From NCBI GenBank assembly GCA_000004695.1, contig CM000152.2, forward strand, positions 4,480,001-4,544,000: 64,000 bases of DNA. The letters run 5' to 3'. The notes under the pieces are model-generated. The model searched no databases. It saw nothing but the letters and a program-made list of their open reading frames with translations, and was not told where the DNA came from. This DNA comes from Dictyostelium discoideum. Taxonomy: Eukaryota. This document shows positions 305-60,424 of the stretch, piece by piece (the first letter of the stretch is position 1; every line of letters begins with the position of its first letter). Made by a program: the position numbers and the translations under genes.

Positions 305-4393
<4,089 letters not shown>

Positions 4394-4505
4394 CTTTTTT
4401 TTTTTTTTTTTTTTTGGAGCAAATGAGAAAATTAATAAAAACTTTTTAATAAAAAAAAAAAAATAAAGAAATTAAATTAAGGTGTGTGTATGTGTTTATA
4501 ATTAC

Positions 4506-4854
4506 TCTTTTTCTGGATTTCTTATTATAATCAAGATCATTATCAATGAAATTTGGGAATTGTGGCGATTTACTACTTCTTGGTCTTAGACTAATTGTAT
4601 ACTTCCTATTATTTTGTTGTTCCTCCTCCCCCTCTTCTTCTTCCTCCTCTTCCCCCTCCTCTTGTTCTTCTTCTTCTTCTTCTTCAACCATTTCCTCATC
4701 AACATCCTCTTCTCCATACTCACTATAAGCATTCTCCTCCTCTTGTTGTTCTTCCTCATCATCATCATCTTGTTCCGTCTCAACCTCCTCCTCTTCTTCA
4801 TCTTCCTGTTGTTGATATTGTTTCTGTCTCTGCGAAGTTTGTTGTTGTTGTTGT

Positions 4855-4889
<35 letters not shown>

Positions 4890-5653
4890 TTGTATTTTAT
4901 ATGAAATATTATCATCTTCTCCCTCGTCATCATTATTGTTGTTGTTTCGATTATTATTAGTATTTTGTTTTTTACGTTGTCTATTATTTGAATGAATTTC
5001 ATCAATATCATCATCATAACCATTTAAAGTAGCTTCGAAACTAAATGATTTAGGTGGCACTCTTTGCCTTTGAGGTCTTTGAGGTTGAAATTTCTTTTGC
5101 TCTTCCTCTAATTTCATTTGTTGTTGTTGATATCTAATATGCTTTTGGTGTTGTTTATTTTGTAATTCTTGTTGTATTTGGTGTTGAAATTTCCCAAGTC
5201 CAATATTTTCTTGAGGCTGTTGTTTTTTAAGTTGTTGATTTAAAATTTTATTTTCAATACCTGTATTATCATAAATTTCAGTTTTATTCCCACCATTGAT
5301 ATTATTGTTATTATTATTATTGATATTATCATTGTTAATGGTTTTACTATTATCAATATTACTATTGGTATTACTATTATTATTATTATTATTACTACTA
5401 CTACCACCACTACTATTATTATCATTATTTTTATTATTATTTTCATTTATAAGATTATTATTACCACCACTACCAACAATATCACCAGAGTTACCTTCAG
5501 TTCCACTATTATCAGTACTTCCACCGCTATCTACATTATGTTTTCTTCTCCTATTAACAAAAGATCCATGTGAAACTGGAAAATTAACTGTAGAAATAGT
5601 ACTATTAACATATCCGATACTGTTTGAAGTTGTTATGGTAGTGGGGGGTAGGC

Positions 5654-5747
<94 letters not shown>

Positions 5748-5819
5748 TAAATCATTATTAATTATATTACTATGATTATTACCATTGTTAGTTTGTGTTA
5801 TATCATTAGTGCATTCCAT
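4506..5819 (-). CDS. ATAD2/Yta7-like AAA+ ATPase, 5' exon with the poly-N, poly-Q and acidic N-terminal region. A 112-bp intron at 4394..4505 joins it to the 3' exon.
   Basis: ORF 4446..5876 has the acidic/poly-E N-terminus typical of Yta7/ATAD2. A minus-strand GTAATT donor sits right after codon R at 4506-4508. The intron is over 90% AT and ends in an A-run plus AG at 4394-4395. Both junctions are phase 0, giving ...KSRKR|NKITTPVPRRR... in frame with the downstream ORF. The likely start is the Met of MECTNDIT at 5819; the upstream MFICFFFF is poly-T read-through. Confidence 0.6.
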
Positions 5820-5938
5820 TATTAATATGTATGAATATTTAAATGAAAAGAAAAAAAAAAAAAAACAAATAAACACACTGTGATGAAAAAAAAAAAAATA
5901 AAATTAAATTAAAAAAAATGAAAATTTAAATTCAGTTT

Positions 5939-5975
<37 letters not shown>

Positions 5976-6136
5976 CCTTTTAGGTGACATTAGCTTTATT
6001 TATATGCATTTAATAATATATTTTTGTGAATGGGTTTTTTTTTTAAAATTTCCATATAAAAAAAAAAAAAAATGCCAATATAAACAGAAAAAAAAAAATA
6101 AAAAAATATTAAAACTAAACAAATTCTTATTAAAAT

Positions 6137-6183
<47 letters not shown>

Positions 6184-6205
6184 ATTTTTATTTTATTTTT
6201 TAAAT

Positions 6206-7907
6206 TTAGTTTTTCTTTAAAATTTGAGAACTTGCATAAAAGATACAACCAATTAAATTTAAATTAATGATAATCTTTTGACCAAATACTGGAATGGTTG
6301 ATAACCATTCAAGTTTTGGATGATCTAAGAATTCTTCTCCTAAAAATGGTTTAATTGAACAAACCATTGCATTATTTCTAACGATATTATCACCAATTAA
6401 GAAAACTGATGCACCAAATGTACCAACACTAATTTCTCTAGCGCATCTAACAAGATATTGATAATGAATTTTCATTGTCTTTACACAACTACAATTTAAA
6501 TTCTCTGGATTTGCTGCTGCTTGACTTGCAACTATAATTAATTAATTAATTAATTTTTATTATTATTATTAGTAAATTTAATTTCAAAAAAATAAAATAA
6601 AATAAAATAAAATAAAATAAAATAAATTAATTGATTAATAAATAAATAAAATGTAATTACTTTCTGAATTATTTCTTTCTGGTTCATTTTCATGTTTCAT
6701 AATACTATAAAGTGCTTGAACACCACGACCACTAACAATATCTTCATATTCTAATGAGTAGTTGGTTCTTGTACTAGAAATAAATAGATTAAATAACAGA
6801 TAATTAGATTTGTTATATATATATATTACTATAAAGAGAAAGTTATTTAAAACACTAATAATAATAATAATAATGATACTTTACATTTCCTTTTCTTTAA
6901 TAATGTTTTGTAATTTTTTGAATAATTCTTGTTCACAATCATTAGTATCTGAACAAATGCTAATATGACCAAACTCTGATGGAATAACTTTATATTGATC
7001 ACCAAATTTAGTGATTAAACCTACACCTAAACCAGTACCTGCTGCTAAAACTGGGTCTAAAAATTATAATAAAAATTAAAAATAATTGTAATTATATTAG
7101 TATATATATGTATAATTATACACATTGTAGTATATACTACAAAATAAAAATAATCAAAACTTACAAACACAATTATCTGGTTGTCTTAATGGACCTGTTT
7201 GTTGAACGATAGTTGAGAAAATTGAATCTAAACCACCTTCAGACCTCATGAATGGGATGATACCATAAGCACCACTTTCAAGATCATTTAAAACTGCAAA
7301 TTTACCTGGTGGACAAAGTTTGCTTGGTAATTTCTCTGTGTAAAGGAAATTATCAGATTCAATATAGTTGGTTAATTTATACTAATTTATTAATTTATTA
7401 ATTTAAAAATAATAAAAAATAAAAAATAAAAAAAAGTATTAGAATTACATTTACAATAATATATTAAAAAAAAAAAAAAAAAAAAAAATTATATAAATTT
7501 ATAATTACTTTATTTTTTGAAAGATGTGGACCAGCAAGATCGATACAACAGAATTCTGGTTCGATAAAATTACCTAAACATTCATTTTGAATAATTGTTA
7601 ATTCTTCAATGAGTTTTGTGATATTACTGCATAAGAATTCTTTGATTGTATAATAATCACCATTTTCTGTTGCATATACTACTCTTGTATTTGTACCACC
7701 AATATCAATACCAATAAAATATTGCTAAAATTATATTAAATTAAAAAATAAAAAAATAAAAAATAAAGTTAATAAATGATTTATTTACTTTATTTTTTTA
7801 TTTTTTATTTTTTATTTTTTATTTTTAGTATACTTACAGAGTCTGTTTTTTGTTCTTCAATAAGTTTTGAGTAGTCTCCTAATACTTTATAAACCATTTT
7901 TGTTTTT
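6206..7907 (-). CDS. Glucokinase, bacterial Glk type (ATP-dependent glucose kinase). Six exons: 7848..7907, 7509..7724, 7165..7381, 6885..7056, 6661..6773 and 6206..6531.
   Basis: The spliced translation gives MVYKVLGDYSKLIEEQKTDS|QYFIGIDIGGTNTRVV...(N-terminal ATP-binding motif)...FAVLNDLESGAYGI...DPVLAAGTGLGVGLI...VIPSEFGHISI...YEDIVSGRGVQALYSIM...CAREISVGTFGASVFLIGDNIV. These match the Glk family motifs (GDVGGTNAR, INDF, GAGTGLGV, GEGGHV, SGPGL). All introns are 110-130 bp, AT-rich, start GTAAGT/GTAATT/GTAAAG and end AG. The phases are consistent: 0, 0, 1, 2, 1. Confidence 0.8.
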
Positions 7908-8420
7908 ATGTATGTTTTTAAAAAAAAAGAAAATTATGAAAATAAAAAAAAAAAAAAAAAAAAATTTGGGAGTATTTAATTATTTTTTTTTTAAAAAATA
8001 AAATAAAAAAAAAAAAAATTAAAATAAAATGATGTTGAAAGTCGGGGTGCTGAACTTATCAATTGGAGGATCGTCTGAATGTTCAATTCGAATTAATTCC
8101 GGAAAAAAAAAAAAAAAAAAAATTAAAAAATAAAATTTAAAAAAAAAAAAATAAATTGTTAATTAAAAAAAAATATTGTTAATACTAAAAAAAAAATATA
8201 TTGTCAATATTTAAAAAAAATAATTAAAAAAATTTAAAAACCCAAAATAAATAATTTTTTTTTTTTTTTTTTTTTAGAGGCAGTCAAGAAAAAAAGTAGA
8301 TTATATTTTTATTTAAAATTAATTTTAAGAAAATTAATAGTAGTTCCAAAATAAAAATAAAAAAACACTTATTTGTTATTCCTATTATTTTTTTATTAAT
8401 TTATTTATTTTCGACTAACC

Positions 8421-8456
<36 letters not shown>

Positions 8457-9145
8457 ATTATTTTTAGTTGTTTATGATTTTTTTTTTTTTTTATAATGAT
8501 AATGAAATGTTATTAATTTTATTGATTTCACCTACCCCCATTAAAATAATTTTTTTAATAAAAATAATATATATTATTATTTTTATAATATTAAAAATAG
8601 CGACATATGAACTTTAATTTTGTTTCAGTGAGGAGCGAGGGTGAGTGTTAGTGTGAGTATTTTAAATACATAATTAATAATATCTAAAAGATTTTAAAAA
8701 ATAATTGAATATTCCTATTAAAAAGAGGGACACAATGATGAAACACAACCTCCCTTCATATGTGATTTTAAAAACATATTAAAATTAAAAAAAAAAAAAA
8801 AAAATTAAGAGGAAAAAAAAAACAAATAGTTTTTTTAAGTGGGTTGTGTTTCAAGTGGGGTGATTTAGATAATTTTTTCAAAAAAAATAACCAATAATTT
8901 GCCCCCACCCACTTTCACTATCAAGTTTTTTTATTTTGAAAAAAAAAATTTTGTGTTTAAAAATAAATTAACAAAAAAAAAAAAATAATAAAAATACATT
9001 TTTTGTGGTGAGATAAATAGAGATAATGATGAATATAAACGACAATTCGAGAAATGAAACCTTTTTTTAGAATGTTTTTGAGATCATATTGAGAGATAAT
9101 TAATCAAAGTGGTGAAATACCCACAAAATTATTTTAAAAATAAAA

Positions 9146-31849: not shown

Positions 31850-31860
31850 GGATTCGAACC
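31850..31860 (-). promoter_or_regulatory. External B box (ex-B box, GGTTCGAATCC) about 30 bp downstream of tRNA-Leu(UAA).
   Basis: The plus strand reads ggattcgaacc, whose reverse complement is the Pol III B-box consensus. Many Dictyostelium tRNA genes carry such an extra B box 3' of the gene. Confidence 0.6.
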
Positions 31861-31889
31861 TACGACTGAATTATATTTGCTAAAAGCTT

Positions 31890-31971
31890 GCAAGAGGCGA
31901 GATTCGAACTCGCGAACCGAATGGATGAGATCTTAAGTCACACGGATTTAACCAGACTTTCCTACCCTTGC
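31890..31971 (-). tRNA. tRNA-Leu(UAA), type II, 82 nt.
   Basis: The minus-strand sequence is GCAAGGGTAGGAAAGTCTGGTTAAATCCGTGTGACTTAAGATCTCATCCATTCGGTTCGCGAGTTCGAATCTCGCCTCTTGC. It has a 7-bp acceptor stem, a perfect T-arm (GCGAG TTCGAAT CTCGC), an anticodon loop CU-UAA-GA and a long variable arm. Confidence 0.85.
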
Positions 31972-40084: not shown

Positions 40085-40386
40085 ATTTTAAAAAATAAAA
40101 AAAAAAAACAAACCTACCCATAAAAAAAAAAAAAAAAAAAAAAAATAAAAAATAAAAAAAAAAAAAAAAAAAATAAGAAATAAAATAAAATTTGATCAGA
40201 TATAATAGAATAATTTTATTTTTAGAATTGTTTAATCTCCACCATTGACTAAACACACTAATGTTTGTTGTGTGGGATATTTTTAATTTTCGTATTTTTA
40301 TATTTTTTTTTTTTTTTTAGTTTTTCATTTTTTTTTTTTTTTTTTTTTTAAATTTAATTTCAACACACCATTAGATATTATTTTAT

Positions 40387-42336
<1,950 letters not shown>

Positions 42337-42959
42337 ATATAATACCGTTTATAAAAAGATTGATGAAATAGTTTATTGTAATACTTTTTTATATTATTAT
42401 TTTTATTGTTTTTTTTTTAAAATGTTTTTTTGGTTTATTAATTTATGTATGTCCTTAAGCATTTTATTCTTCATTTTCTTAATTTGACCACTTTTATATG
42501 AAATTACTATTTTCAAATTATTAAATAGATAGAAATTTGGTAGGAAAACTTTAAAATTGATTTTTTTTTTAAATTTATAAATTAGTTTTTTTTTTTTATA
42601 GTGAGTGAAGAGTGTGTTGAGTGTTGTGATATATTTGTTGAGATTTGTTGGTAGTGTTACAGAGTGAATTGGAGAGTTCCAATTCTTGCGAAATCTCTCA
42701 GTTGTTTGGATATGATAGATTTGTATTTTTTGGCTTGTTTGTTATTTGTGGCTTTTTTTCTTTTCTAATTAGTTTGTGTTTGTTGTTTTTGGTTAATGAA
42801 ATATCCAATTTGAATTTTAAATTTTTTTTTTTTTTTTTAATAACATCACTCAATTTGAGTGTGTTCTAGGAGAGTTTATTTGTAGTTTTTTTTTTTTTAT
42901 ATTTTTTTTTTTTTTATTCTTATTTTTTTATTATTATTATTATTATATTATTATTATTA

Positions 42960-42989
42960 TTATATTATTATTATTATTATTATTGTTAT

Positions 42990-43034
<45 letters not shown>

Positions 43035-43757
43035 GGTAGTTGGTGTTATATGAGCAGTATGGTCTGAAGTGTTCCTCATGAGTTTCGAGTTCCAGTTGTG
43101 ACTGAATTTTTCGAGTCTTCTTTTTATTGATGCGGTCCGATTGATTGACTCTCGGTTATCAGTGCATCTTAGTTCTTGTCGTAGTTGCTTTTCTACTATC
43201 TTTCTTGTTCTATCCCATTCGGCAACTCTCGCTTTTTTGATTTTATGAATTATTTGGTTCTCTGTTATTATTGTAGTGTTATCGTTGAATTTTATTTGGT
43301 TTCTTCTGTACCATATCGATTCCATAATGGCTCCTATCAGATTTGATGAGAATGGTGTGAGTAGTTTTCCGAGAACTTTTTCGCTCCATGGACCGTGGTA
43401 AGTGTTGTTAGAGTCTTTACAGACCTTTTGATAGATTGAGTCGATATCCTGTTTTATTGATTTGCATTCGAAGAAGATGTGCATAGACCACTCTTCTTCT
43501 TTACATGAGTGGCAATTCTCCCCATGGTGTTTTGGAAGTGCCTTGAGTAGATACCTCCATGCTAAGTCTCTTCCTTTGATAGTTGTTATTGATCTGGCTT
43601 CTCTAAATGGTAGAGTTGGGTGATTAATGTTCTTTTGAATCAGTTTTTGACCTGTTGTTGGCTGGTGTTTGTTCCATCCCTTGTATTTTATATCCATCAT
43701 GTTTCTATAGATTACTTTTTGTTTTAGTATTTGGGTTTTGTAGATAATGAATTTTAA
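42960..43757 (-). mobile_element. 5'-truncated non-LTR retrotransposon fragment (3' part of ORF2 with a Cys/His zinc-finger region) ending in a 38-nt poly(A). It lies about 40 bp upstream of tRNA-Leu(AAG), which is TRE5-like positioning.
   Basis: ORF 42960..43700 encodes ...HHGENCHSCKEEEWSMHIFFECKSI... and runs without a stop into the poly(A) (plus-strand T-run 42995-43032). The frame is open upstream to about 43757. The composition is not genome-typical. The truncated 5' end faces the tRNA at the characteristic ~40-50 bp distance. Confidence 0.6.
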
Positions 43758-43793
43758 ATTAGTATTAGTCTAAATAAAATTAAAAATAAAAAA

Positions 43794-43875
43794 GTAAGCT
43801 TGCCCGAGCTGGTCTAAGGGGTTGCATTAAGGCTGCAATATCATTGATACAAGGGTTCGAATCCCTTAGCTTACA
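43794..43875 (+). tRNA. tRNA-Leu(AAG), type II, 82 nt.
   Basis: GTAAGCTTGCCCGAGCTGGTCTAAGGGGTTGCATTAAGGCTGCAATATCATTGATACAAGGGTTCGAATCCCTTAGCTTAC. It has a perfect 7-bp acceptor stem (GTAAGCT/AGCTTAC), an anticodon stem TTGCA/TGCAA with loop TT-AAG-GC, and a T-arm AAGGG TTCGAAT CCCTT. Confidence 0.85.
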
Positions 43876-43899
43876 AAATTTTTTAAAACGAATCCTGTT

Positions 43900-44811
43900 A
43901 AATTTTATAGTTATAATCTATAAGATCAAAAGCAAGCAATCAAACGGATACTAGATACAGAAAAACATAATAAACAGAAGCAACCCTTACATCCCATCCA
44001 CCCCTAAGACACCTGTCAATAAAGAAAGGAAAGGAATCATTGAGAGCTTCATAGAGAGTATCTACCCTTCACCATCCAAACCGCAGCTATACGACTCCCA
44101 AGAGGAGATCGATATCATCTCATAATGGTAGTAATCAAAATCAACCAATGGAATGTCAGAGGTTGGGGCACTGACACCTCCTTCAAAAACAAAACAGACT
44201 TTATCAAATCCCAATCCCCCCCAAACTCATTGGCACTAACCATAGTCAATGAACTCAATGCTGACGCAACACAAGCACACCAGCTATTTCCTGGCTCCAT
44301 CATTAGTGCAACCAACAGAGGCAACGGAATAGGAATACTAAACCACAACAACCAAAACATAAAACCCTCACCAATATTCATAATAGAAGGTAGACTAATA
44401 ATATCAGACATTCTAATAAAAGATACCACAACGAGAATCTTGGCCATATACGCCCCGGCCCAACCTGATAAAAGAAAAATACTAGCTTCAACACTAAACA
44501 AACACTTCAACAACCAATACCAAATTGGCCACTCTAGAATACATCAAAAAAGCAAAAGATCTGAAAAACTTATCAGCAAAAGACCATAATAACTTCAAAG
44601 ATCCTAAGATCCTTCTCACCTCAACGATCAAGCTAAGAAAAACAACAGCTAATTACTATTGTATTCCAGAATCATCTCTCCCAAATATTATATCTTTTGA
44701 TCAATTCATATGATTAAAATAACCCTTCAGCTTAAATGATAAGCCTATAAATAAATATTAAATAAAAACTCGTATTAACACAGATGGACATATATCAATC
44801 TTGTTAATCCA

Positions 44812-44846
<35 letters not shown>

Positions 44847-44848
44847 AA
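43900..44848 (+). mobile_element. Truncated or internally deleted TRE-type non-LTR retrotransposon copy immediately downstream of tRNA-Leu(AAG), with an APE-domain ORF fragment and a 3' poly(A).
   Basis: The composition is non-AT-rich. ORF 44125..44589 (VIKINQWNVRGWG...ILAIYAPAQPDKR) is paralogous to the N-terminal endonuclease region of the downstream full-length ORF2 (LKLLLWNCRG...ILLIYAPATISER). An A-run at 44818-44848 terminates the copy. It lies about 25-100 bp 3' of the tRNA, as TRE3 elements do. Confidence 0.5.
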
Positions 44849-45069
44849 ACATATCCATCATCAATCTAACATCAACTACATTCAATCTATCTACTCTACA
44901 CACTAATTTCTTCAATCCTTGGATTGGGAATAAGAATAGATCTGAATAAACGAGAAAGAAAAAAAAAAAAAAAAATTAAAATTAAAAATCAAAAATATTT
45001 TTATATAAACACATAATTAAAAAAAAAATAATAAAAATAATATAAAAAAAAAAAAAAAAAAAAAAAAAA

Positions 45070-45941
45070 ATGAATTTTTTCGATAAACTTAAAGGTGAAC
45101 TCAACTTAGGCGAGGAAGAGTTAAATAAAAAAACTATTCAAATAAGGTTATTCTACCCAAATACCTTGGAATTAAATAGTAATTCAACAAAATTAATAGA
45201 TAATTTCATAGTTAATGGTACTCTTAACATTGTCAGAAGACAAAAGGGTATAACAGTATTCGGTAGAATACTAAAAGAAAATTCACATTATTACACGAGT
45301 GTTACAGCACTTTCAAGTATGAAGATTTCCCACTGCAAAAATTCATACTTTACACCCCAGGATATCACTATGTCCACTTTTACACATTTACAAAAAACAT
45401 AATAAAAAAAATAAACAATCAAATGGTAAAAGAAAACTGGGGATTGGAGCCATTACTAATAGATGAATGCAACATAGTAATGCTACCAGATGTGATTAGA
45501 TATTCATGCATACTATTATTTAATAAAGAAGATGATATCTCAATCATTAAAACAAACATTGATGCTATAAAAGGTAGTAAGCATCCAATAAGAGCCTTCA
45601 TCTCTGAATATAACAATAAAGAAATAAGAGATGTTAGAAAAAAAAAAAACACAAGTAATAAAAACCAACAACCAACAACTACAAATACAACTAAATCAAT
45701 ACCATCAACTCCACCAACAACTAATGCATCAACAACCACACCAATAACAACCACACCAATAACAACCACACAAACAACAACCACACCAACAACAACCACA
45801 CATCAATTACCAACAAGCAATACAACAATCTACAACCTAAACAAAACTACTACTACTACTACTACTACTACAAAACCTATCAATAAAATTACTACAAGCA
45901 ATGGTACCAAGTTTCCAATTGCCAGTAGTATTAGAAAATAA
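45070..45941 (+). CDS. Retrotransposon ORF1 (two adjacent ORFs, 45070..45402 and 45423..45941, probably one ORF with a frameshift or stop).
   Basis: Its position immediately 5' of ORF2 and its T/P/N-rich C-terminus resemble TRE ORF1 proteins. Confidence 0.5.
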
Positions 45942-48900
45942 TGGAACAATTAAAATTATTACTATGGAACTGCAGAGGTAATCAATCAACCAACGCTAAG
46001 AATAAAACAGAAGAAACGATAAAAAGAATTGGCACTCAATTAGCACTCCTAACTGAAACTAATTTCAATGGATTCAACCACCACAAAACAATGTTCAACT
46101 TTGAAAGAATAGATCATGGTTCAGGTAAAGGAACTGGCATAGCAATAGAAAATAGAGATACAAGAAAAGGCCACATATCAATAAACTTCAAAGACGATGA
46201 TGGTAGAATACTATCAATTAAATACAATTCCTTTAATTCTATCAACATATTATTGATCTATGCTCCAGCGACTATATCTGAAAGAAACACCTTCATAATC
46301 AACTCAAAATCACTGTTTAAAAAATATAATTCAATCAACCATCAAATAATAGCAGGCGACTTCAATAACAACCACGATTGCAACAGCTTCTTCGGTACTG
46401 AATTACGTAAAATAATAGACCAAGACATGCTACTAGATACTGGTATTGAAGAAAACACTCCAACATTTCCAAGATCAATGAAGAGACTAGATAGAATCTA
46501 CTGTCATCCAACACTACTAAACCAAAATTCAAAACTGGTAGTCCACAACACAGTATTTAACAAATCAGATCACTTTCCCATCACAATCACAATACAAACC
46601 AACAGAGAAACAACAACAACAACAACAACCAAATTAGAAAGACTCCCTTGGACATTATGTAAAGAAATTCTCAACAACAAACATATACATGATGGGTTAT
46701 CAGAATTAATCAGTAAGAACAAAGATAAGATCAAATCAGTGGAGGAATGGACGAAATTTAAAAATAATGTCATCAGAGATTATTTTAAAAAAGAACAAAA
46801 CAAAATAAAGAAAGAAAAGAACAAAAGAAAATACGTAATCCACAAATTACTTGGAAATAGTGATATCATTCCAAAGATGAGAAAAGAACTCAATGAAGAA
46901 ATAAGTAGAATATTAGAAGAAGAAAGAAAGGTAAAAGCATGGGATATCAAATTAAAACTCCACCTGCATCAAGAAACACCAAGCAAATACCTCACAAGTA
47001 TCCTTAAATCCAGAGCCAAAGATAAATCAATATTCCAAATAAAAGATAAAGATAATAAGACCATATCAGATAAAGAGAACATAGCAAAAAGATTTGTTGA
47101 ATTCTATCAAGATCAATATGAAGAGAAAGAAGATAACGAAGAAACCCACAAGAAGTTATTAGAAAAATGGGAAGTAGACGTTGATTTAATCAAGAAACTC
47201 GAGATAGACAGACCGATAAGAATACATGAAGTGACCAAAGCAATCAAAACTTCAAGTATCCACAAATCTCCAGGTTTAGACGGTATCAATGCACTATTCT
47301 ACAAGTACCACATCAACTCAATAGCAAGAATATTGACTATAGCTTTCAACGACCTCCTCACAAATAAGAAAGAAATCCCCACAAAATTCAAAGAAGGAGT
47401 AATAACAACAATATTCAAAAAAGGAGATGAACTAAACATTTCAAATAGAAGACCAATCACCCTTCTCAATACAGATTACAAAATTTTAAGCAAAATTCTC
47501 AACAGTAGATTATTAGATATCACCAGTAAAATTATCAACAAATTTCAAAACGGCTTTGTTCCAAACAGGTTCATCCAAGACAATATTCAGATCATGAAGG
47601 AAGTAATAGAAATAAGTAACAAAAGAAAGAACAATACACTCATTACCTTTTACGATTTTAACAAAGCATTCGATTCAATCAGCCACAAGAGTATCACAAG
47701 AACATTAGAGCATATTGGTATCCCCCCAAAATTCACAGCGATCCTACTAAACCTACTCAAAGATACTAAAAACAAAATAAAGATCAACGACTTTTTAGTC
47801 AATGGAATAACAATCAGAACAGGAACAAAACAAGGAGACCCAATATCACCAACAATCTTTGCTCTAGTTTTAGAACCACTTCTAATAGATATCATCAATG
47901 ATAATACAATCAAAGGCTTCACTCTACCAAATTCCAAATCATTAAAACTCACTGCATTTGCTGACGACATAGCAACCTTTACAAACTCCACAGAAGAACT
48001 AATGAAAATTAATACTAAAATCCAAAAGTACTGCTCAGCAACGTCATCATCGTTAAACAAAGAGAAAACAGTAATGATAGCAATAGGAGATAAACCACAC
48101 GATCTACCATTCCAAGAGAGTACAGTCCCAGAAAGATATCTTGGCCTCAATTTCACCAAAACAGGTTTAAATTCAAAATACAACACTTTAATCCAAGAAA
48201 TGAAAAACAATCTAATCAAATGGAAATCACAAGCAATAACGATGAAGGCAAAGATGACAATTCTCAAAACATACGTTCTATCCAAATTAACATACCATCA
48301 ATACATGGATAATCTAAATGAAGAACAAATTGAGGAAATCAATAACATGACCAGATGGTTCTTATTCTCCTCAGTTAAGAATACATATACAGAAGAGAGA
48401 AAATACAAAACTATGATGAAAATAGACAGAGCATATGCAGATTGGAAAGAAGGAGGCATAAAATTATGGGATATAGAACTAAGACATATAGCATTCAAAA
48501 TCTGGTACATGAACAGGCTACTCCATAACAACTACAACAACAACAACAATACCTTACAAGAATGGTACATGGAGCAATTAAGTAGAAAAAAAGCCCACAC
48601 TTCAACCCTCAACGATATGTGCAGACACTGGGGTGTATTCAGAGTCAAATTTTACCAAAACCATCCAAAGATAAATGAACTTCCAGACTGTATAAGAAAC
48701 GACAATGACGAACCACTAAAACTGAAAGAAATTTACGAACTCATGATCAAAGACAGACACCCAACACCAAGAAGAACAGAATGGCAGAAGTTATGGGCGG
48801 TGAGATACAACACAGCAATACCCAAAGTATTCATAAACATCAACAGCATTTCTCACCAAAAAGGTAGAAACACCCTCTTCAGATTCTTCTCAAGATCACT

Positions 48901-49384
48901 TCCAGGTATCAACCACGAAAGAGACACCAGATGCAAGATCTGTGGCCACCTATTCAGAGACCCTTATTCTCACCTCTTCACTCTATGCCAAGATATCCTA
49001 GATATTGAAAAAACCATCATATCAACAGTTAACAAATTATCATTCATCAAAATCCACAGATGGTCAATGGATACCTTAGACATATCAAAATACAACAGAA
49101 CTGAGAGAATCTTCCCCAATCTCATAGGAATAATAGCACACCAATTATGGAAGATAATCTGTCACAAATTGTTCAACACTGATGAAAGCAAACCAGAGCC
49201 AAAATTCGAACAAAAGGTCATAGAAACAGAATTACTAAATCTCATCGAAACTGAAAAATTCATCACACTAAAGAAAATCAAACACGACGAAGCAATACTA
49301 AAAAATACAAATCAAGATCTTCACAAATACAAATTCAACAAAGCCTGGCAAACCCCAGCAGCTCCGAACCCTCTTCCAATTTAA
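45941..49384 (+). CDS. Retrotransposon ORF2 polyprotein (apurinic-like endonuclease plus reverse transcriptase), 1147 aa.
   Basis: See the element call above. There is one long uninterrupted ORF in non-AT-rich DNA. Confidence 0.85.
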   Translation: MEQLKLLLWNCRGNQSTNAKNKTEETIKRIGTQLALLTETNFNGFNHHKTMFNFERIDHGSGKGTGIAIENRDTRKGHISINFKDDDGRILSIKYNSFNSINILLIYAPATISERNTFIINSKSLFKKYNSINHQIIAGDFNNNHDCNSFFGTELRKIIDQDMLLDTGIEENTPTFPRSMKRLDRIYCHPTLLNQNSKLVVHNTVFNKSDHFPITITIQTNRETTTTTTTKLERLPWTLCKEILNNKHIHDGLSELISKNKDKIKSVEEWTKFKNNVIRDYFKKEQNKIKKEKNKRKYVIHKLLGNSDIIPKMRKELNEEISRILEEERKVKAWDIKLKLHLHQETPSKYLTSILKSRAKDKSIFQIKDKDNKTISDKENIAKRFVEFYQDQYEEKEDNEETHKKLLEKWEVDVDLIKKLEIDRPIRIHEVTKAIKTSSIHKSPGLDGINALFYKYHINSIARILTIAFNDLLTNKKEIPTKFKEGVITTIFKKGDELNISNRRPITLLNTDYKILSKILNSRLLDITSKIINKFQNGFVPNRFIQDNIQIMKEVIEISNKRKNNTLITFYDFNKAFDSISHKSITRTLEHIGIPPKFTAILLNLLKDTKNKIKINDFLVNGITIRTGTKQGDPISPTIFALVLEPLLIDIINDNTIKGFTLPNSKSLKLTAFADDIATFTNSTEELMKINTKIQKYCSATSSSLNKEKTVMIAIGDKPHDLPFQESTVPERYLGLNFTKTGLNSKYNTLIQEMKNNLIKWKSQAITMKAKMTILKTYVLSKLTYHQYMDNLNEEQIEEINNMTRWFLFSSVKNTYTEERKYKTMMKIDRAYADWKEGGIKLWDIELRHIAFKIWYMNRLLHNNYNNNNNTLQEWYMEQLSRKKAHTSTLNDMCRHWGVFRVKFYQNHPKINELPDCIRNDNDEPLKLKEIYELMIKDRHPTPRRTEWQKLWAVRYNTAIPKVFININSISHQKGRNTLFRFFSRSLPGINHERDTRCKICGHLFRDPYSHLFTLCQDILDIEKTIISTVNKLSFIKIHRWSMDTLDISKYNRTERIFPNLIGIIAHQLWKIICHKLFNTDESKPEPKFEQKVIETELLNLIETEKFITLKKIKHDEAILKNTNQDLHKYKFNKAWQTPAAPNPLPI

Positions 49385-49389
49385 GTAGT

Positions 49390-49450
<61 letters not shown>

Positions 49451-49758
49451 ATATAGTTTAAAAAATTTAATACAATTGAATAATAATAATAAAACCTTTT
49501 AACAAACACCGCTGAAAAGACACAAGGACATTCCTTGAAGGTCTGATCACAGGTAAAAAAAAAAAAAAACACCGCTTTTAGGTAAAAAAAAAAAAAAAGT
49601 TATAATATATAAATAAAAACGTAAAACTGATTTTTCGAAAAACGAAAAATTGTTTTTATATTTTATTTTTATTTTTTATTTTCGGTTTTAACAAACCGAA
49701 CTTCGTAAAGTACCAAAATACTTTACAATCCATATTTAATTTTCATTTTGCAGAAAAC

Positions 49759-50330
49759 GCACATGTCCCATGCCAAAATTAATATGGCTGCTGAAATTAA
49801 TATGGTAATTTTGGCATGGGACTTATGTCTGCTAGAATTACCACATTAATTTCAGCAGCCATATTAATTTTGGCATGCACAGACCAACTATTTTAGGCTG
49901 AAATTAATATGGCTGCCGAAATTAATATGGTAATTTTGGGCATAGAAAAATAAAAAAAAAACTCAAAGTCATTTAATTAATAATCATCTCAAATATAAAA
50001 GAATTAAAAATAATAAAAAAAAACTCATGGGATTAATTACAGTAACAATACTGATGACAAGAATAATTATAAAATAAAAAAAAAAAAAAAATCTTTTTTT
50101 ATCTTTTTATTTTTATTTCTTATTTATTTTCATGTGTTCAAAAAAAGTGGTGGTTTAAAACAATTTATTTAATTTTAAACTGTATGATTGTTTAAACAAT
50201 TTCGAAATAAGTTTCTTTAAAGAAATTCTGTATTTCTTTTTTTTATTTTATTTTATTTCATTTCATTCTATTTTTTTTTTTTTATTTTTTTTATTTTTTT
50301 ATTTTTTTATTTTTTTTTTGTATATTTAAG

Positions 50331-50424
<94 letters not shown>

Positions 50425-50426
50425 TA

Positions 50427-50470
<44 letters not shown>

Positions 50471-51573
50471 ATTACTATTATTTAATTGACCGAAGGGATA
50501 TCTTTTACTTTTTTTTTATATATAATTGTTCGAAACTTTAAAAAATAAAATAAAAAAAAAAAATTAAAAAAAAAAATATAAAAAAAAAATTAAAAAAATT
50601 AAAAAGTATTTTTTTTTTTTATTTTTTTATTTTTCCACCCGAAGATGTCGCTTTTTTGGAATTTAAAGATGTTGAATTCAATCAAAGTGATGAATTTGGT
50701 GTATTATTTAACGAAGTTACTATTGATAAAAATGATTTGAAGTACAAAGTAAATGTTGAATTTAGAGAGGCGGAGACAAGTAAAATAAATTGCAAAGGGA
50801 TATCGAAATAACCAAAAGAAAATCAACAGATGACCTAGTTGAAAAAGCAATCGAGCACTCTACCACCGAAGTTAGATCAACACATGAAGCTGCAACAACT
50901 TCCAATAATGGTGGAATCACAACTCAATCAAACAAAAACAAAACGGGTAAAAAAAGAGCTAATCAATTACAATCTGATGCTGATTTTACCAAAAGATTTT
51001 CAAACGAAACTTCATCTGTTAGTAACAAAAGAGAAAGTAGAAGAGTCAATAATTAAAATAAAAAATTAAAAAAAAAAAATTATTTTAATTTTTTTTTTTT
51101 TTTTTTTTTTTTATTTTTAATTTTTTTTTTTATTTTTAATTTTTTTTTTTGTGAGCCGTGGACATAAATGAATAATAAAAAAATATATCAACTAAAAAAA
51201 AAAGAAATGAAAATAAATTATAAAATTAATAATAAAAATAAAAAGATAAAAATAAATAAAAGATATAAATAAAATAATATGAAAATTTTTTTTTTTTTTT
51301 TTTTTATTATTATAATTATTATAATAAAAATAATAATAATAATAATTTTAGTACTAAAATTTTGTTTATATTTGAGATGATTATTAATTAAATGACTTTG
51401 ACTTTTTTTTTTTTTCTATGCCAAAATTACCATATTAATTTTGGCAGCTATGTACATGCTGAAATTAATATGGCTGCTGAAATTAATACGGTAATTTTGG
51501 CAGACATAAGTCCCATGCCAAAATTAATATAGCTGCTGAAATTAATATGGTAATTTTGGCATGGGACACGCAC
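49759..51573. mobile_element. Non-autonomous element (~1.8 kb) bounded by ~220-bp terminal inverted repeats (about 49759..49998 and 51364..51573). The interior is non-coding with an (ATT)n tract at 50335..50468.
   Basis: The left end acgcacatgtcccatgccaaaatta...ttttgggcatag...aaagtcatttaattaataatcatctcaaatataaa reappears as its reverse complement at the right end (...tttatatttgagatgattattaattaaatgactttg...ctatgccaaaatta...catgggacacgcac). Each TIR is built from 44-bp palindromic sub-units (gccaaaattaatatggctgctgaaattaatatggtaattttggc). The internal ORFs 50790..51069 are short and low-complexity. Confidence 0.6.
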
Positions 51574-51579
51574 AATATA

Positions 51580-52078
51580 AAAAATACAGGTTCAACTGGA
51601 ATTATATAAACACAAATCTTGACCTAGTCAGAACACATGCATATTGGAACTTAATCTCATTAGTTATTCACCAAATATGGATATGGTTATGCAAATCATT
51701 ATTTGACATCAATATAACTCAATCAATTGACAATTGGAACAACCAAATAAACAACACAACACTAGATTATGATATATTAAAATCAAAATGGCACAAGCTA
51801 ATAAGATTGGAATATTCAAGAACATTATCAAACTTTAACCAATACTCAATTAAAAACAACCTCACAAAAACTCAAAAAGAAACCCAATGGTCCGAAACCA
51901 TCAAAAAATTTAAAAAAGAATGGAGCATAAACACAAATGAACCAATTCCAACAATTACACCACCAATTAATTATTAATTACCTAATCTAAAATAACATAC
52001 CATTTTAAATTCACAAAAACTAAAAAACCTAAAATAAATAAATAAAAATAACATACTACAATAGTTTATTTATATCAA

Positions 52079-52109
<31 letters not shown>

Positions 52110-52110
52110 T
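51580..52110 (+). mobile_element. 3' fragment of a TRE-type retrotransposon (ORF2 C-terminal end plus poly(A)), abutting the right TIR of the inverted-repeat element.
   Basis: ORF 51561..51977 (HQIWIWLCKSLFD...KKEWSINTNEPIPTITPPINY) parallels the last ~130 aa of the full-length ORF2 (HQLWKIICHKLFNTDESKPEPKFEQK...QTPAAPNPLPI). An A-run at 52082-52110 terminates it. Confidence 0.5.
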
Positions 52111-52368
52111 TTGGAGGTTAAGAAAATCATTTTTTTTTAAATTATTTCTACTATTTTAGAATAAATAAAAAAAAAAAAAAAAAAAAAAAACTGATGATGG
52201 TATAGGTTAAGGAAAAAAATTTAAATTTTCGGGTGACTGTAAAAAAACTAAAAATCTATTTTTACAAAAGTTGGGTTTTGTTTTAATTTCTAATTTTTTT
52301 ATTTTTGAATTTGAAAATCAAAACTCATCATTTATAAAAAAAAAAAAAAAACTAAAATAAAATAAAAA

Positions 52369-56318
<3,950 letters not shown>

Positions 56319-56336
56319 TGAGAATTAGGAATAAAT

Positions 56337-56881
56337 ATGGAAATTAAAAAAACTCATTTCTTTGAAAATTGGACTCAAACAAGCTTATCATATAATAAAC
56401 ATCATTATATTGCAAATATTAAAGGTACATCAAATATTACCATTGAAACTGAATGGTTTGATAGTTTAACAAATATTACATTTGCAAATCAAAAATTAAC
56501 AATGAATCCTCCAACTTTGAAATATAATATCAATATTACAAAATATGAATTTATTTCTAATATTAATTCACTTCAATTAGTTATTCAATCAAAACTATCA
56601 AAAAATTCAAATATTGATCATAGTATTTGTTCAGCTCAATCATTTGGGGAAACAACCTCAAATGATAATTCAAATTATATTCAATTATCAGTTGAAAAAC
56701 ATTCATTATATGGTCGTTTCATAAAAAGAGGTATAGTTGATAATAAAATCATTTCAATTAATAATGAACAATTAAATGATTTAAATTCTGAAAGTTCTTA
56801 TTATACATCAGAATCTCATATTGGTATAAATATACCTTGGTTTAAGGATTTAGTTCAATTAGATCCAGGTATGTATAGTTT

Positions 56882-56918
<37 letters not shown>

Positions 56919-57140
56919 AAGATGTATATATTATATAGTAAATTATTATATAAATACTAATTATCTTTTTTTTTATTTTTTTAATTAAAAATAATCATAA
57001 AAATTATTAGATTTTTCTGTATTATTAGATGGATCATCAACAAACTCAATATGCAAAGATGGTCACAGTTTATCAAAAAAAAGCGTTAATTGGTGTTATT
57101 GTAGGCTGTGTTGGTAATTATCGTTGTAGCATTTATTGTT
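56337..57140 (+). CDS. Tandem partial paralog or continuation of the surface-protein locus, with a N-glycosylation-rich ectodomain. A C-terminal TM exon (ALIGVIVGCVGNYRCSIYCCKI) lies at about 57080..57140.
   Basis: ORF 56337..56868 has many NxT/S sites and no signal peptide. It is in the same frame as the upstream block, separated only by TAA TGA. A GTATGT donor sits at 56869. A downstream AG acceptor at ~57078 gives a clean TM + stop exon in phase 1. Confidence 0.3.
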
Positions 57141-57875
57141 GTAAAATATAGAACCGATATGAAAATTATGAAAATTAAGTTAATAAAATTAAACAAATAT
57201 TAAAATCATATTAACCAACAAGCAATGTCTTGAAAAAAAAAAAAATAATAATAATAATAAAATAGATAATATCTACTAAATAATTAATGATTATTTTTAG
57301 TTTTTATCTTTTTTCTACTCTTTTTTAAAAAATAGAATACAACATGAGATATTAATTTATTTATTTTTTATTTTTTATTTTTTTTTATTTTTTTTTTTTA
57401 TTTTTTTTTTTTATTTTTTTTTATTTATTATTTATTTGAGTTTAAAAATTGTTTTAACCAGTATATCACAGAGAACTTGATATTTCTTTAGGGTTTTTTT
57501 ATTTTGGGGTATTGAATCCATGAACTATGGCACACCATTTTTTCCAAGCATTTAATTAGATAAAGAATGAATAGAAAATTAAAAAAAAAAAAAAAAAAAA
57601 TATATATTATCAAGATCATGGATATTGATAATTTCAAACACTTCCAAAAATAGTTAAAATAGTTTGGTTAAATATAAATATTAAAAATATTTCAAAACCC
57701 TTTAAAAATTTTACCTCTTTTTGGTTATTTCTTTTTATTCATTTATTAAATTTTAGAAAATTAAAAAATATATAAATTAATTTTTTTTTTTTAAAAAAAA
57801 AACCTATAAATATTTGAAAACCAATTTCATTTTTATTTTTTATATTATAATTTTAATAAAGAAAGATAAAAAAAG

Positions 57876-58331
57876 ATGGTTAATGCAATTGTAATTATTA
57901 AGGGATTGGGGGTTGAAGGAAAAGTAACATTATCTCAAGAATGTGAAGGTAGTCCAATTTACATCAATGGAACAGTTAGTGGATTAACACCTGGTCAACA
58001 TGGTATGCACGTCCATGAATTTGGCGATACAAGTAATGGATGTATTAGTGCTGGAGATCATTATAATCCATTGCATAGAGAGCATGGTTCTCCTTTAGAT
58101 GTTGAACGTCATATTGGTGATTTAGGAAATATTAAAGCTCTTTCAAATGGTGTTGCAACAATTTCAATTAGAGATACTATAATGTCTTTATTTGGAGATA
58201 TATCTGTAATGGGTAGAACAATGGTAATTCATTCTGATAGGGATGATTATGGTAGAGGTAATTTTCCAGATTCAAAAACAGCTGGTCACTCTGGTAAAAG
58301 AGTTGGATGTGGTATTATTGCAAAGATTTGA
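57876..58331 (+). CDS. Cu/Zn superoxide dismutase, 151 aa, single exon.
   Basis: The copper ligands (HVHEFGD) are present, together with the zinc-loop and C-terminal SOD1 signature GNAGGRLACGVI-like motif ([15 protein letters not shown]). The catalytic Arg is in [13 protein letters not shown]. Confidence 0.85.
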
Positions 58332-59250
58332 ATAAAAAATAAAAAGGATAATATCAATTTTTGATTTTTTTTTTTTTTTACTTATTTATTTATTTGATTT
58401 TTTTTTTTACTTATTTATATATTTGATTTTTTTTTTTTTTTTTTAATTATTATTATTTTTAAAATTCTGATTAAAATTAGAAATACAAATATGAAATAAT
58501 CATAATGTGAAGTATTAGTTTGAATAACAAATATGGTTGTGTTATTATTAAATTGTGTGGAAGTTAAATTACTAATCCTTATATTCATTTATTTTAATAT
58601 TTGTGTATTTTATATAATGGATTCCATATTCAATTGAATTGTTAATTGAATAGTATTTGTAATATTATTTAAAAGGTATGATCTTGCTCTATCACTTCCA
58701 TCCCCAGTTCAATTCATGGTAGTGGTTCATTATCATCTATATCACCACATTCACTATTATTATATTTTATATGCTATTACTGTTTACAACTAATGTTAGT
58801 GGCTGTGGTGTCAGTAATAATTTTGGTGTTAAAAAAAAAAAATGAATGAAAAAAAAAATGAACACAAATTGAAAGTAAATTGTTAATTATTTTTTTAACA
58901 ATCAAATAACTGTTTTAAATTAATTTTTTTTTTTTATTTTTGGTAAATTGTTTTAATTATAAAAAAAAAAAATTTCAGTGTATTTTTTTTTTTTTTTTTT
59001 TTAATTATTTATTATTCTTTTTTTGGTTGATATTTTGTGAATAGTTTTATTTTTTTAAATTCTCGACACAAATTACTAATTTTTTTTTTTTTAATTAAAA
59101 ATAAATATTTATTTTTTCTTTTACTAAACCATGTTTATAGAGCTTGATGTCAGTATGTTTCTTTTATTATTTATTTTAATTTTTTTTTTTTTTTATTATT
59201 TCTATTAAGATTATCATTAACAATTTCTTCAAAACAATAATAAATAATAA

Positions 59251-60424
59251 ATGATTGCTAATAAAATTTCTGATATTAAAAACTCAAATATTTTTTCTAT
59301 ATATAAAAAAGATTATATTTTAGGAGTCAAGAATGTTGGTGACAAAGAGTTTAAAGTACACGCATTAAATGGTGGTAAATATTTAGATATGTCTTATAAA
59401 AGCGGTACATTATCAAAACTCCTTTTGATACAAGAGGTAATTATTTTTAGTTTTAATTTTAGAAGCTCTATTTAAAAATCAAAATTTTTAATAACATATA
59501 AAAACTTATTTTGTAATTTAGTATTTACATGATGTTTTTACAGAAGGTGAATTAGATGGTGTCATTATTAAAAGAAATTTATCAGAATCTAAATTTGATG
59601 AGTTTGAAGAAAAATATAGAGATTATAAAGTTGAATATGTCAAACATGGAGGTTTGGTAATCATTTATGAAAATCTATCAACTGGAATAGCTCACTTTTA
59701 TTGTACTGGTGCTTTATTTCCAATGTTTGAACGTGTAAATAGTTTTTATGTACAAAGGGTTTTAACTACTAGTTCTGATCTTTCAATTAGTCTTCCTCAT
59801 GGTTCTAGACAACCAGATTTAAGTTCATTACCTGATGGAAGACAAAGTTTGGTTCCTACAACTGTTGTTGAGATTGGTGTCTCACAATCAGTCACTCACT
59901 TAGTAAAAAAGTGTGCTTCTTTCTTTAGAAATACTCAAATCGAAATAGTATTGGGAATAAAGATTTTTTCAAAAGAAGATGATAATACATTTAGAGCAGT
60001 AGCATTTAATTATAGCCGTAATGGGTTAAATGGCAATTGTCTATCAATTGTTTCATTTGGCAGTTGCAGAACAACTGTACAAGATGAAGAACTCTTTTTA
60101 GAATTAACCAACAACAATCAAAATCCAAATATTCTTACAGGTGTTTTATCAACCAATCAAGTTTTAAACAATGCACCAAATACACCACCATTTGTAATCA
60201 ACGTACGTAAATATATTAATAAATTATAATTTTTAATCAATGTATTAATTACAAAAATTATTCTATAGATTCCATTAGCAGCATTATTAAATGGAGCTTC
60301 TCCACAACCACAATTTCTTCCAAACTTGTTACAAGCACCTATTAATATTCCAATTGATTTATTTACAGTAAAAATCTATTTAGAAACAAAAATTCCAGCA
60401 AATAGATCTTTTACATCTTTTTAA
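59251..60424 (+). CDS. Hypothetical protein (~340 aa), three exons: 59251..59436, 59522..60202 and 60269..60424.
   Basis: The ATG at 59251 is followed by a GTAATT donor at 59437. The acceptor AG is at 59520-59521, phase 0, and runs into ORF 59654..60229 (...GVLSTNQVLNNAPNTPPFVIN). The GTACGT donor at 60203 to AG at 60267-60268 is optional; without it the protein ends ...VRKYINKL. No recognizable domain is found. Confidence 0.4.

Follow-up and report, generated by a model that had tools for sequence, protein, structure and literature searches.

A leucine tRNA gene on chromosome 3 of Dictyostelium discoideum has very probably served as a landing pad for TRE non-LTR (long terminal repeat) retrotransposons, having received at least five successive integrations by target-primed reverse transcription. 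The gene, a tRNA-Leu(AAG), is one of two tRNA genes in a very AT-rich stretch of 64,000 nucleotides from strain AX4 (positions 4,480,001-4,544,000; here called the window, to which all coordinates refer unless a locus is named). It is flanked upstream by two TRE5-type pieces and downstream by three TRE3-type elements, together with an inverted-repeat element that is read here as a copy of thug-S, a DNA transposon. The evidence consists of the observed families, orientations, distances from the tRNA gene, target-site duplications (TSDs) and nesting of the pieces, and of an insertion polymorphism between strains. Position-specific integration, TRE5 type upstream and TRE3 type downstream of an RNA polymerase III (Pol III) gene, had been proposed in an earlier sequence-only reading of the window, and the orientations, distances, TSDs and six other loci agree with it.

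The target gene was found by ARAGORN and Rfam (tRNA, 50.8 bits) at 43794-43875 on the plus strand, confirming the earlier call of a tRNA-Leu(AAG), and corresponds by coordinate match to the catalogued gene LeuAAG-2 (AX4 chromosome 3, 4523794-4523875; PMC5391098 S2 Table). The second tRNA gene, a tRNA-Leu(UAA) on the minus strand at 31889-31971 (ARAGORN), is LeuUAA-10 (chromosome 3, 4511889-4511971; PMC5391098 S2 Table), and both genes are offset from their tabulated positions by exactly 4,480,000. The internal B box of LeuAAG-2, GGTTCGAATCC, lies at 43854-43864. Integration is known to follow a rule (PMC5911963): TRE5 elements enter ~44-54 bp upstream of a tRNA gene and face the opposite way, and TRE3 elements enter 40-150 bp downstream and take the orientation of the tRNA gene. 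The observed ranges are 37-90 bp for TRE5-A, 34-82 bp for TRE5-B, 14-228 bp for TRE3-A, 34-188 bp for TRE3-B and 14-305 bp for TRE3-C (PMC5006619 Table 1), and sequential TRE hits on one tRNA gene yield tandems (PMC5006619). The ranges applied here were 37-90 bp upstream for TRE5 and 14-305 bp downstream for TRE3, in the stated orientations. The orientation rule holds for all five retroelement pieces, the three downstream elements lying on the plus strand like the tRNA gene. Distances of about 48 bp on the 5' side and about 100 bp on the 3' side had been expected; the gaps, present or original, are 46 bp upstream and 48, 94 and ~163 bp downstream, all inside the published ranges. Every retroelement unit ends in poly(A), and the TSD copies match at 13/13 positions for the upstream fragment, 14/15 for the full-length downstream element, 10/10 for the fragment nested in it and 6/6 for the thug-S-like element. 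Other copies are ~95% identical to the outer pieces and 98-99% identical to the inner ones, an age gradient that agrees with the positional order.

The same families were compared at loci of another D. discoideum assembly, chosen by protein identity (L numbers, Table 1). At 6/6 unrelated loci a tRNA gene lies within 110 bp, on the expected side and in the expected orientation, and TSDs of 10-14 bp are present at L001, L002, L003 and L008. An ordinary build-up of repeats in AT-rich intergenic DNA, with the tRNA gene there by coincidence, is scarcely credible in the face of these loci, of the orientation of all five pieces and their original distances, and of the tagged TRE5-A integrations mapped experimentally at LeuAAG-2 (PMC5391098), even though repeats are tolerated in the intergenic DNA of Dictyostelium, the cluster also holds thug-S, which is not a TRE, and the other tRNA gene of the window, LeuUAA-10, is unoccupied. 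The de novo integrations of tagged TRE5-A listed for LeuAAG-2 number 1, 0 and 88 (PMC5391098 S2 Table). A perfect match to the external B box, GGTTCGAATCC, lies 29 bp beyond the 3' end of LeuUAA-10 (31850-31971, box and gene together), and despite this box tblastn found no TRE-like sequence around the gene.

The architecture of the pieces is that of non-LTR elements, with two open reading frames (ORFs), an apurinic/apyrimidinic (AP) endonuclease, a reverse transcriptase (RT), a zinc finger and poly(A). The tRNA-targeted LTR retrotransposons DGLT-A (13-33 bp upstream) and Skipper-2 (8-23 bp downstream) also adjoin tRNA genes, but the likelihood that the upstream and downstream pieces are such elements is negligible. 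In Pfam, ORF2 has an AP-endonuclease and lacks integrase and RNase H, all units end in poly(A), self-comparison found no direct long terminal repeats, and the distances (46 bp upstream, 48-163 bp downstream) agree with TRE elements and not with DGLT-A or Skipper-2.

Pieces were assigned to families by tblastn with the Dictyostelium proteins recovered in an ORF2 search (P numbers). The four main pieces represent four families, whose ORF2 proteins are 29-39% identical, and blastn self-comparison of 42700-52400 found no DNA similarity among the retroelement pieces. The three downstream families, at 33-39% ORF2 identity, replace the earlier picture of downstream copies of one kind. The ORF2 proteins form three clades, with 29-33% identity between them: the family of the full-length element with P0005 (59%), the P0012 and AAD43057 families (39%), and P0008 with P0010/P0011 (40-42%). 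The protein records of these families are named only 'hypothetical protein' or 'pol', and exact look-ups of three proteins (the window ORF2, P0007 and P0093) gave no match.

Upstream of the tRNA gene, the exact TSD TGAATTTTAAATT (42811-42823 and 43748-43760) delimits a 5'-truncated fragment at 42822-43747, whose 5' end (43747) is separated from the tRNA start (43794) by 46 bp and whose orientation is opposite to that of the tRNA. A minus-strand non-LTR fragment just upstream of the tRNA gene had been recognized from the sequence alone; its distance, put at about 40 bp, is corrected by the TSD. The fragment contains the ORF2 C-terminus, zinc knuckle included, an A-run inside the element (42993-43032), a tract of (AAT)n, a unique tail of ~45 nt and a terminal poly(A) at 42822-42838. 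Its coding part (43041-43724, minus strand) shows 94% amino acid (aa) identity by tblastn to residues 822-1047 of P0008. The fragment is 94.8% identical by blastn to the element at L004, with which it has in common the order of ORF2 stop, A-run, (AAT)n, identical 45-nt tail and terminal poly(A). Because this homology resumes past the T-run at 42993-43032 and reaches 42824, the T-run, earlier taken for the poly(A) (at 42995-43032), is an internal A-run and not the tail.

The fragment was first assumed, from family abundance and an ORF1 of ~51 kDa, to be TRE5-A, an assignment ruled out by primer, module and Ile-10 tests. TRE5-A (also called DRE) is recognized by an AB-ORF1/ORF2-BC layout, in which the 290-bp B-module is duplicated and the C-module measures 137 bp, by the endogenous primers and by Ile-10 of ORF1, and the C-module positions T15, C26, A35 and C38 are described in PMC3159450. 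A genuine TRE5-A is present at L002, with the primer sites, ORF1 Ile-10, duplicated B-modules and a C-module with T15, C26, A35 and C38. The upstream fragment resembles TRE5-A in the integration rule, and its family in the ORF1 and ORF2 layout. However, the fragment, which itself contains no ORF1, has neither the B nor the C module of TRE5-A, and local alignment of the TRE5-A C-module found no C-module-like sequence anywhere in the window. The full-length copies of its family at L004 and L008 stood in for the fragment in the primer test: the published endogenous primers Rep-190 and Rep-109Q match L002 exactly and have no match in L004 or L008. The ORF1 of L004 is 38% identical to the L002 TRE5-A ORF1 across 150 aa. 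By elimination the fragment is probably TRE5-B, being distinct from TRE5-A and, unlike TRE5-C, having full-length copies in its family; the consensus lengths are 5647 bp for TRE5-A, 5971 bp for TRE5-B and 879 bp (partial) for TRE5-C (PMC5006619 Table 1). The full-length two-ORF copies, oriented opposite to the tRNA genes and with their 5' ends 41-48 bp upstream of them, are TRE5-B-like, whereas the measured length of ~5.5 kb, with a foreign 770-bp insert discounted, falls below the 5971 bp of the consensus.

Further out lies a stub (42586-42810) comprising the last ~40 codons of a distinct TRE5-clade ORF2 and an A12 tail. By tblastn it matches the C-termini of two TRE5-clade proteins, P0011 (55% identity) and P0010 (40%), from D. 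cf. discoideum and D. citrinum, and its A/C-rich strand bias lies on the minus strand. The 3' C-module of TRE5-C is ~78% identical to that of TRE5-A, and no module of the TRE5-C/TRE5-A type was detected in the stub (best score 41; null scores 29 +/- 4, reaching 43 at most). The stub is an older TRE5-like insertion, displaced outward.

Other features of the TRE5-type elements were seen at the comparison loci. The TRE5-B-like element of L008 has ~5 tandem 5' repeats of ~198 bp (1800-2900 of the locus), ~81% identical to the TRE5-A A-module (~79% for the 5' repeats of the family's full-length copies), and that of L004 has ~1.5 such units. The L004 element also carries the ~770-bp insert in its 3' untranslated region (UTR; 7457-8225), in which TTTAAAGGTAATTTTTAA-type palindromic repeats surround B-box fragments that are tRNA-like. 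Just outside it, at 8556-8983, lies a TRE5-A 3' fragment (ORF2 end and C-module, at most 95% identical to L002), which is a further case of outward displacement by later integration.

Downstream, the principal element has a total length of 4790 bp on the plus strand and is made up of 43924-43969 and 44854-49597, beginning 48 bp 3' of the tRNA gene. Its 5' UTR is split, because sequences on the two sides of an 874-bp insertion are contiguous in the related copy L006, which aligns from 44843 onward and whose preceding 31 nt equal window 43939-43969 exactly. A full-length element with an intact ORF2 had been seen from the sequence alone and placed at 44990-49447 (4.5 kb); the element stands, with these revised boundaries. 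The truncated copy proposed at 43900-44848 dissolves into the 5' end of the full-length element and the nested fragment of another family (43970-44843). The stretch 44859-44954, considered as a separate tail fragment, was ruled out as such, since L006 shows it to be 5' UTR of the full-length element. Identity to L001, L002 and L006 is 98.3-99.4% over 44843-49572. An A60 run (49389-49448) lies inside the 3' UTR, which also has an A15 tail (49555-49569). The L001 and L002 alignments pass the A60 run and reach ~49570, so the 'short tail fragments' of the sequence-only reading belong to the element itself, being its 3' UTR and a duplicated tail of 29 nt. This 29-nt unit at 49570-49597, CACCGCTTTTAGGT followed by A15, stands after the poly(A) and inside the TSD. 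It resembles a shortened repetition of the 3' end of the element (CACCGC...CACAGGT and An), perhaps produced by re-priming or template switching during reverse transcription.

The ORF2 of the full-length element (45941-49384, 1147 aa) is free of stops, as had been noted, and contains the Pfam domains Exo_endo_phos (residues 8-211) and RVT_1 (493-737), the motifs SDH209 and FADD673, and a C-terminal Cys/His knuckle CX2CX10HX4C at 998-1016. Its best tblastn match (45941-49381, plus strand) is P0001 at 99%. ORF1 (45070-45941) has lost one nucleotide from an A-run near 45278 and stops at 110 of 290 codons, and in the sister copies L001 and L002 it is uninterrupted at 290 codons. The orthologous copy of another strain (L007/L005) has a different single-base deletion in an ORF1 A-run, at the equivalent of window ~45639, and the two differing deletions are either independent decay or homopolymer sequencing errors.

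Against the earlier suggestion of a potentially active copy, an active, autonomous master copy is an improbable reading of this element. It is encouraged by the open 1147-codon ORF2 with all catalytic motifs, the 99% identity to other copies and the presence of both element ends and a TSD. Autonomy nevertheless appears unlikely because ORF1 is frameshifted and the 5' UTR, the presumed promoter region, is interrupted by the 874-bp fragment; also, the orthologue in the other strain carries its own ORF1 frameshift, and only 2 intact full-length TRE3-C copies were counted in AX4 (PMC5006619).

Among the named TRE3 subfamilies, whose consensus lengths are 5229 bp (TRE3-A), 5279 bp (TRE3-B), 4734 bp (TRE3-C) and partial for TRE3-D (PMC5006619 Table 1), the full-length element best fits TRE3-C. 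Its 4790 bp agrees with the TRE3-C size (~4.73 kb, shorter than TRE3-A and TRE3-B), the excess being the A60 run and the 29-nt tail duplication. Like TRE3-C, it has two ORFs, an ORF2 with endonuclease, RT and zinc knuckle, and the same orientation downstream, and its ORF2 falls in a different clade from the two 5.2-kb TRE3 families. It differs in its frameshifted ORF1, interrupted 5' UTR and 29-nt duplicated tail. The P0005 family, a fifth TRE3-like ORF2 family 59% identical to the ORF2 of the full-length element, could be the real TRE3-C, in which case the full-length element would be TRE3-D. In addition, P0148, from a D. discoideum strain with the locus tag prefix ACTFIW, has an ORF2 58% identical to that of the TRE3-A-like family, and P0148 and P0005 together suggest more TRE3 lineages than the four named.

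The fragment nested in the full-length element lies 46 nt from the element start and 94 bp 3' of the tRNA gene, and is bounded by the TSD GAAAAACATA (10/10; 43960-43969 and 44844-44853). It joins family positions ~1248-1801 (the ORF1 end and N-terminal endonuclease part) to ~4916-end (3' UTR and poly(A)), and is thus 5'-truncated with a 3.1-kb internal deletion. Its coding part (43970-44523, plus strand) has 93-95% aa identity to P0012 by tblastn, and the fragment is 98.2-99% identical by blastn to full-length copies in L003 and L007. The family fits TRE3-A, with full-length copies of 5239-5241 bp, close to the 5229-bp consensus of TRE3-A (Tdd-3), and the largest protein cluster (79 members); TRE3-A is the most abundant TRE3 (PMC5006619). 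By contrast, the window copy is only 874 bp long, and TRE3-B (5279 bp) is also possible for this family. The 5' ends of the full-length element (43924-43931) and of the TRE3-A-like element of the other strain (L007 3637-3652) share the start (AAGA)GATCAAAA despite 33% ORF2 identity.

L007 is the orthologous locus of another D. discoideum strain (assembly GCA_054883475.1, CM142509.1), 99.7% identical over window 40322-59419. It contains at 3661-8901 an extra 5241-bp element of the 5.24-kb family, absent from the window and inserted at the site equivalent to 43969/43970, with ORF1 (429 codons) and ORF2 (1261 codons) both open. The extra element lies directly 5' of the nested fragment, and GAAAAACA is thus present three times in L007. 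Between the strains the nested fragment is identical at 848/848 positions, yet it differs from the extra copy at 10 of ~850 positions; therefore the two are separate integrations at the same nick. On balance we favour the view, by a modest degree, that both TRE3-A-like integrations used the same first-strand nick (each poly(A) being followed by GAAAAACA, 94 bp from the tRNA gene), which would indicate nucleotide-precise positioning by the Pol III complex and recent TRE3 mobility, polymorphic between strains.

The two head-to-tail TRE3-A-like sequences of the other strain, with their common short flanking repeat, might instead suggest that the tandem and nested layout arose by local duplication or recombination. 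Such an origin is very unlikely for the layout as a whole, given that every unit carries a poly(A) and a TSD of its own, that the nested fragment matches perfectly between strains and not its neighbouring full-length copy, and that the downstream units come from three families. Independent integrations remain the preferred explanation.

The outermost downstream fragment was at first seen only as a 3' fragment at 51580-52110. It does end in poly(A), at 52077-52105, but comprises 49728-49763 and 51575-52105, split by an element of 1805 bp. The main part contains the last 135 ORF2 codons, the 3' UTR and the poly(A). By tblastn it is 99% identical in aa (51570-51974, plus strand) to 'pol' AAD43057.1 and to residues 1141-1275 of P0118/P0007, and its DNA is 95.2% identical to L008. 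The left part matches L008 7515-7551 in 33/38 columns of a local alignment. The two halves are contiguous in L008, and with 49764-51568 and one copy of CGCACA taken out, 49728-49763 runs directly into the sequence that begins at 51575. Subtraction of the later insertions gives an original gap to the tRNA gene of ~163 bp. As a second Pol III target for this fragment, a hidden B box or tRNA pseudogene was sought near 49600-51570 and none was found; the later insertions account for the distance. As the 39%-identical sister of the TRE3-A-like family, the AAD43057 family would be TRE3-B. The likeness lies in the 99% match to the C-terminus of the 1275-aa 'pol' protein; on the other side, the long copy at L008 is 4994 bp against 5279 bp, giving no length support, and the window piece is a thug-S-split 3' end of 567 bp.

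The splitting element has inverted arms (49764-50133 and 51246-51568), the terminal inverted repeat (TIR) TGTCCCATGCC... and a 6-bp TSD, CGCACA (49758-49763 and 51569-51574). At 49781-49867 lies a mir-7131 precursor hairpin, scoring 93.8 bits with Rfam RF03716 against a gathering score of 74 and folding at -89.6 kcal/mol (z = -12.3 relative to shuffled sequence). The right-arm hairpins are well under the mir-7131 threshold. We take mir-7131 to be the thug-S microRNA, as reportedly found by Avesson et al. 2012. Published work locates multicopy microRNA loci in the thug-S DNA transposon. The element is read as a probable thug-S copy inserted in the old TRE3 fragment, the likeness to thug-S as described being that of an inverted-repeat element with a near-perfect mir-7131 hairpin.

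Some points weigh against the landing-pad reading as laid out here. The subfamily letters (TRE5-B, TRE3-A/B/C) are provisional, deriving from length, abundance or copy number, elimination and the ORF2 identity matrix, and the C-versus-D assignment of the full-length element is uncertain because the P0005 family exists. The TSDs, exact or nearly so for three retroelement units, are weak for the other two: that of the distal fragment is TTAATTTT at best, and a possible TSD of the outermost TRE5-like stub, CTAATTTA(T)AAATT, is imperfect. The 5' end assigned to the distal fragment has an ambiguity of ~18 bp (49728 to 49746). A canonical external B box was not found downstream of LeuAAG-2, where there is only the half match CGAATCC at 43890-43896.

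Table 1. Retroelement layers, target gene and associated features in the window, and elements of the same families at other tRNA genes.
Feature	Position	Strand or orientation	Evidence
Oldest, outermost TRE5-like remnant, ~225 bp	42586..42810	-	tblastn, strand bias
Left TSD copy TGAATTTTAAATT, 13 bp, of upstream TRE5-type fragment	42811..42823	.	13/13 identical to right copy 43748-43760
5'-truncated TRE5-type fragment, 926 bp, probably TRE5-B	42822..43747	-	DNA/protein homology, TSD
tRNA-Leu(AAG), LeuAAG-2	43794..43875	+	ARAGORN, Rfam, B box, PMC5391098 coordinates
Left TSD copy AGTTATAAT[C/A]TATAA of full-length element	43909..43923	.	14/15 identical to right copy 49598-49612
First 46 nt of full-length element 5' UTR, severed by nested insertion	43924..43969	+	contiguity in L006
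Nested TRE3 fragment, 874 bp, TRE3-A-like 5.24-kb family	43970..44843	+	blastn, tblastn, TSD
Remainder of full-length TRE3-C-like element	44854..49597	+	homology to L001, L002, L006; Pfam; motifs; TSD
Left 36 bp of oldest downstream TRE3 fragment, TRE3-B-like	49728..49763	+	local alignment to L008
thug-S-like DNA transposon, 1805 bp	49764..51568	.	inverted arms, TIR, TSD, Rfam hairpin
Main part of oldest downstream TRE3 fragment, TRE3-B-like	51575..52105	+	protein/DNA homology
L001, full-length (TRE3-C-like) family	78 bp after tRNA-Leu(UAA)		
L002, full-length (TRE3-C-like) family	84 bp after tRNA-Pro		
L006, full-length (TRE3-C-like) family	109 bp after tRNA-Ser		
L003, P0012 (TRE3-A-like) family, 5239 bp	85 bp after tRNA-Thr		TSD TTAAGAAATCCATG
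L008, AAD43057 (TRE3-B-like) family, 4994 bp	62 bp after tRNA-Asn		TSD CTCTCAAATATC
L004, P0008 (TRE5-B-like) family	41 bp upstream of tRNA-Ala	opposite	
L008, P0008 (TRE5-B-like) family	~48 bp upstream of tRNA-Asn		

In the mechanism taken from published TRE5-A work, the endonuclease/RT machinery would be guided to the site of integration by the Pol III transcription complex that occupies the tRNA gene, with TFIIIC bound at the B box and TFIIIB upstream. TRE5-type elements would nick ~46-48 bp upstream and come to lie with the element 5' end facing the tRNA gene, and TRE3-type elements would nick ~50-160 bp downstream and take the orientation of the tRNA gene. Each new arrival would land at the same distance from the tRNA gene, pushing older copies outward or splitting them, so that the order of arrival can be read from position. 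Upstream, the unassigned TRE5-like stub would have been followed by the TRE5-B-like fragment. Downstream, the TRE3-B-like 3' fragment, later split by thug-S, would have come first, followed by the full-length TRE3-C-like element and then by the deleted TRE3-A-like element in its 5' UTR. In the other strain, one more intact TRE3-A-like element would have arrived at the same nick site.

For the D. discoideum reference genome, tRNA-targeted TRE5 and TRE3 elements and their tandem build-ups have been documented in detail, and published tables of integrations already list LeuAAG-2, so the locus offers nothing new in kind. It provides a clean worked example, in which five retroelement layers and one DNA transposon can be ordered by TSDs and nesting. 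The polymorphism of an intact 5.2-kb insertion at the same nucleotide position could mark recent TRE3 activity.

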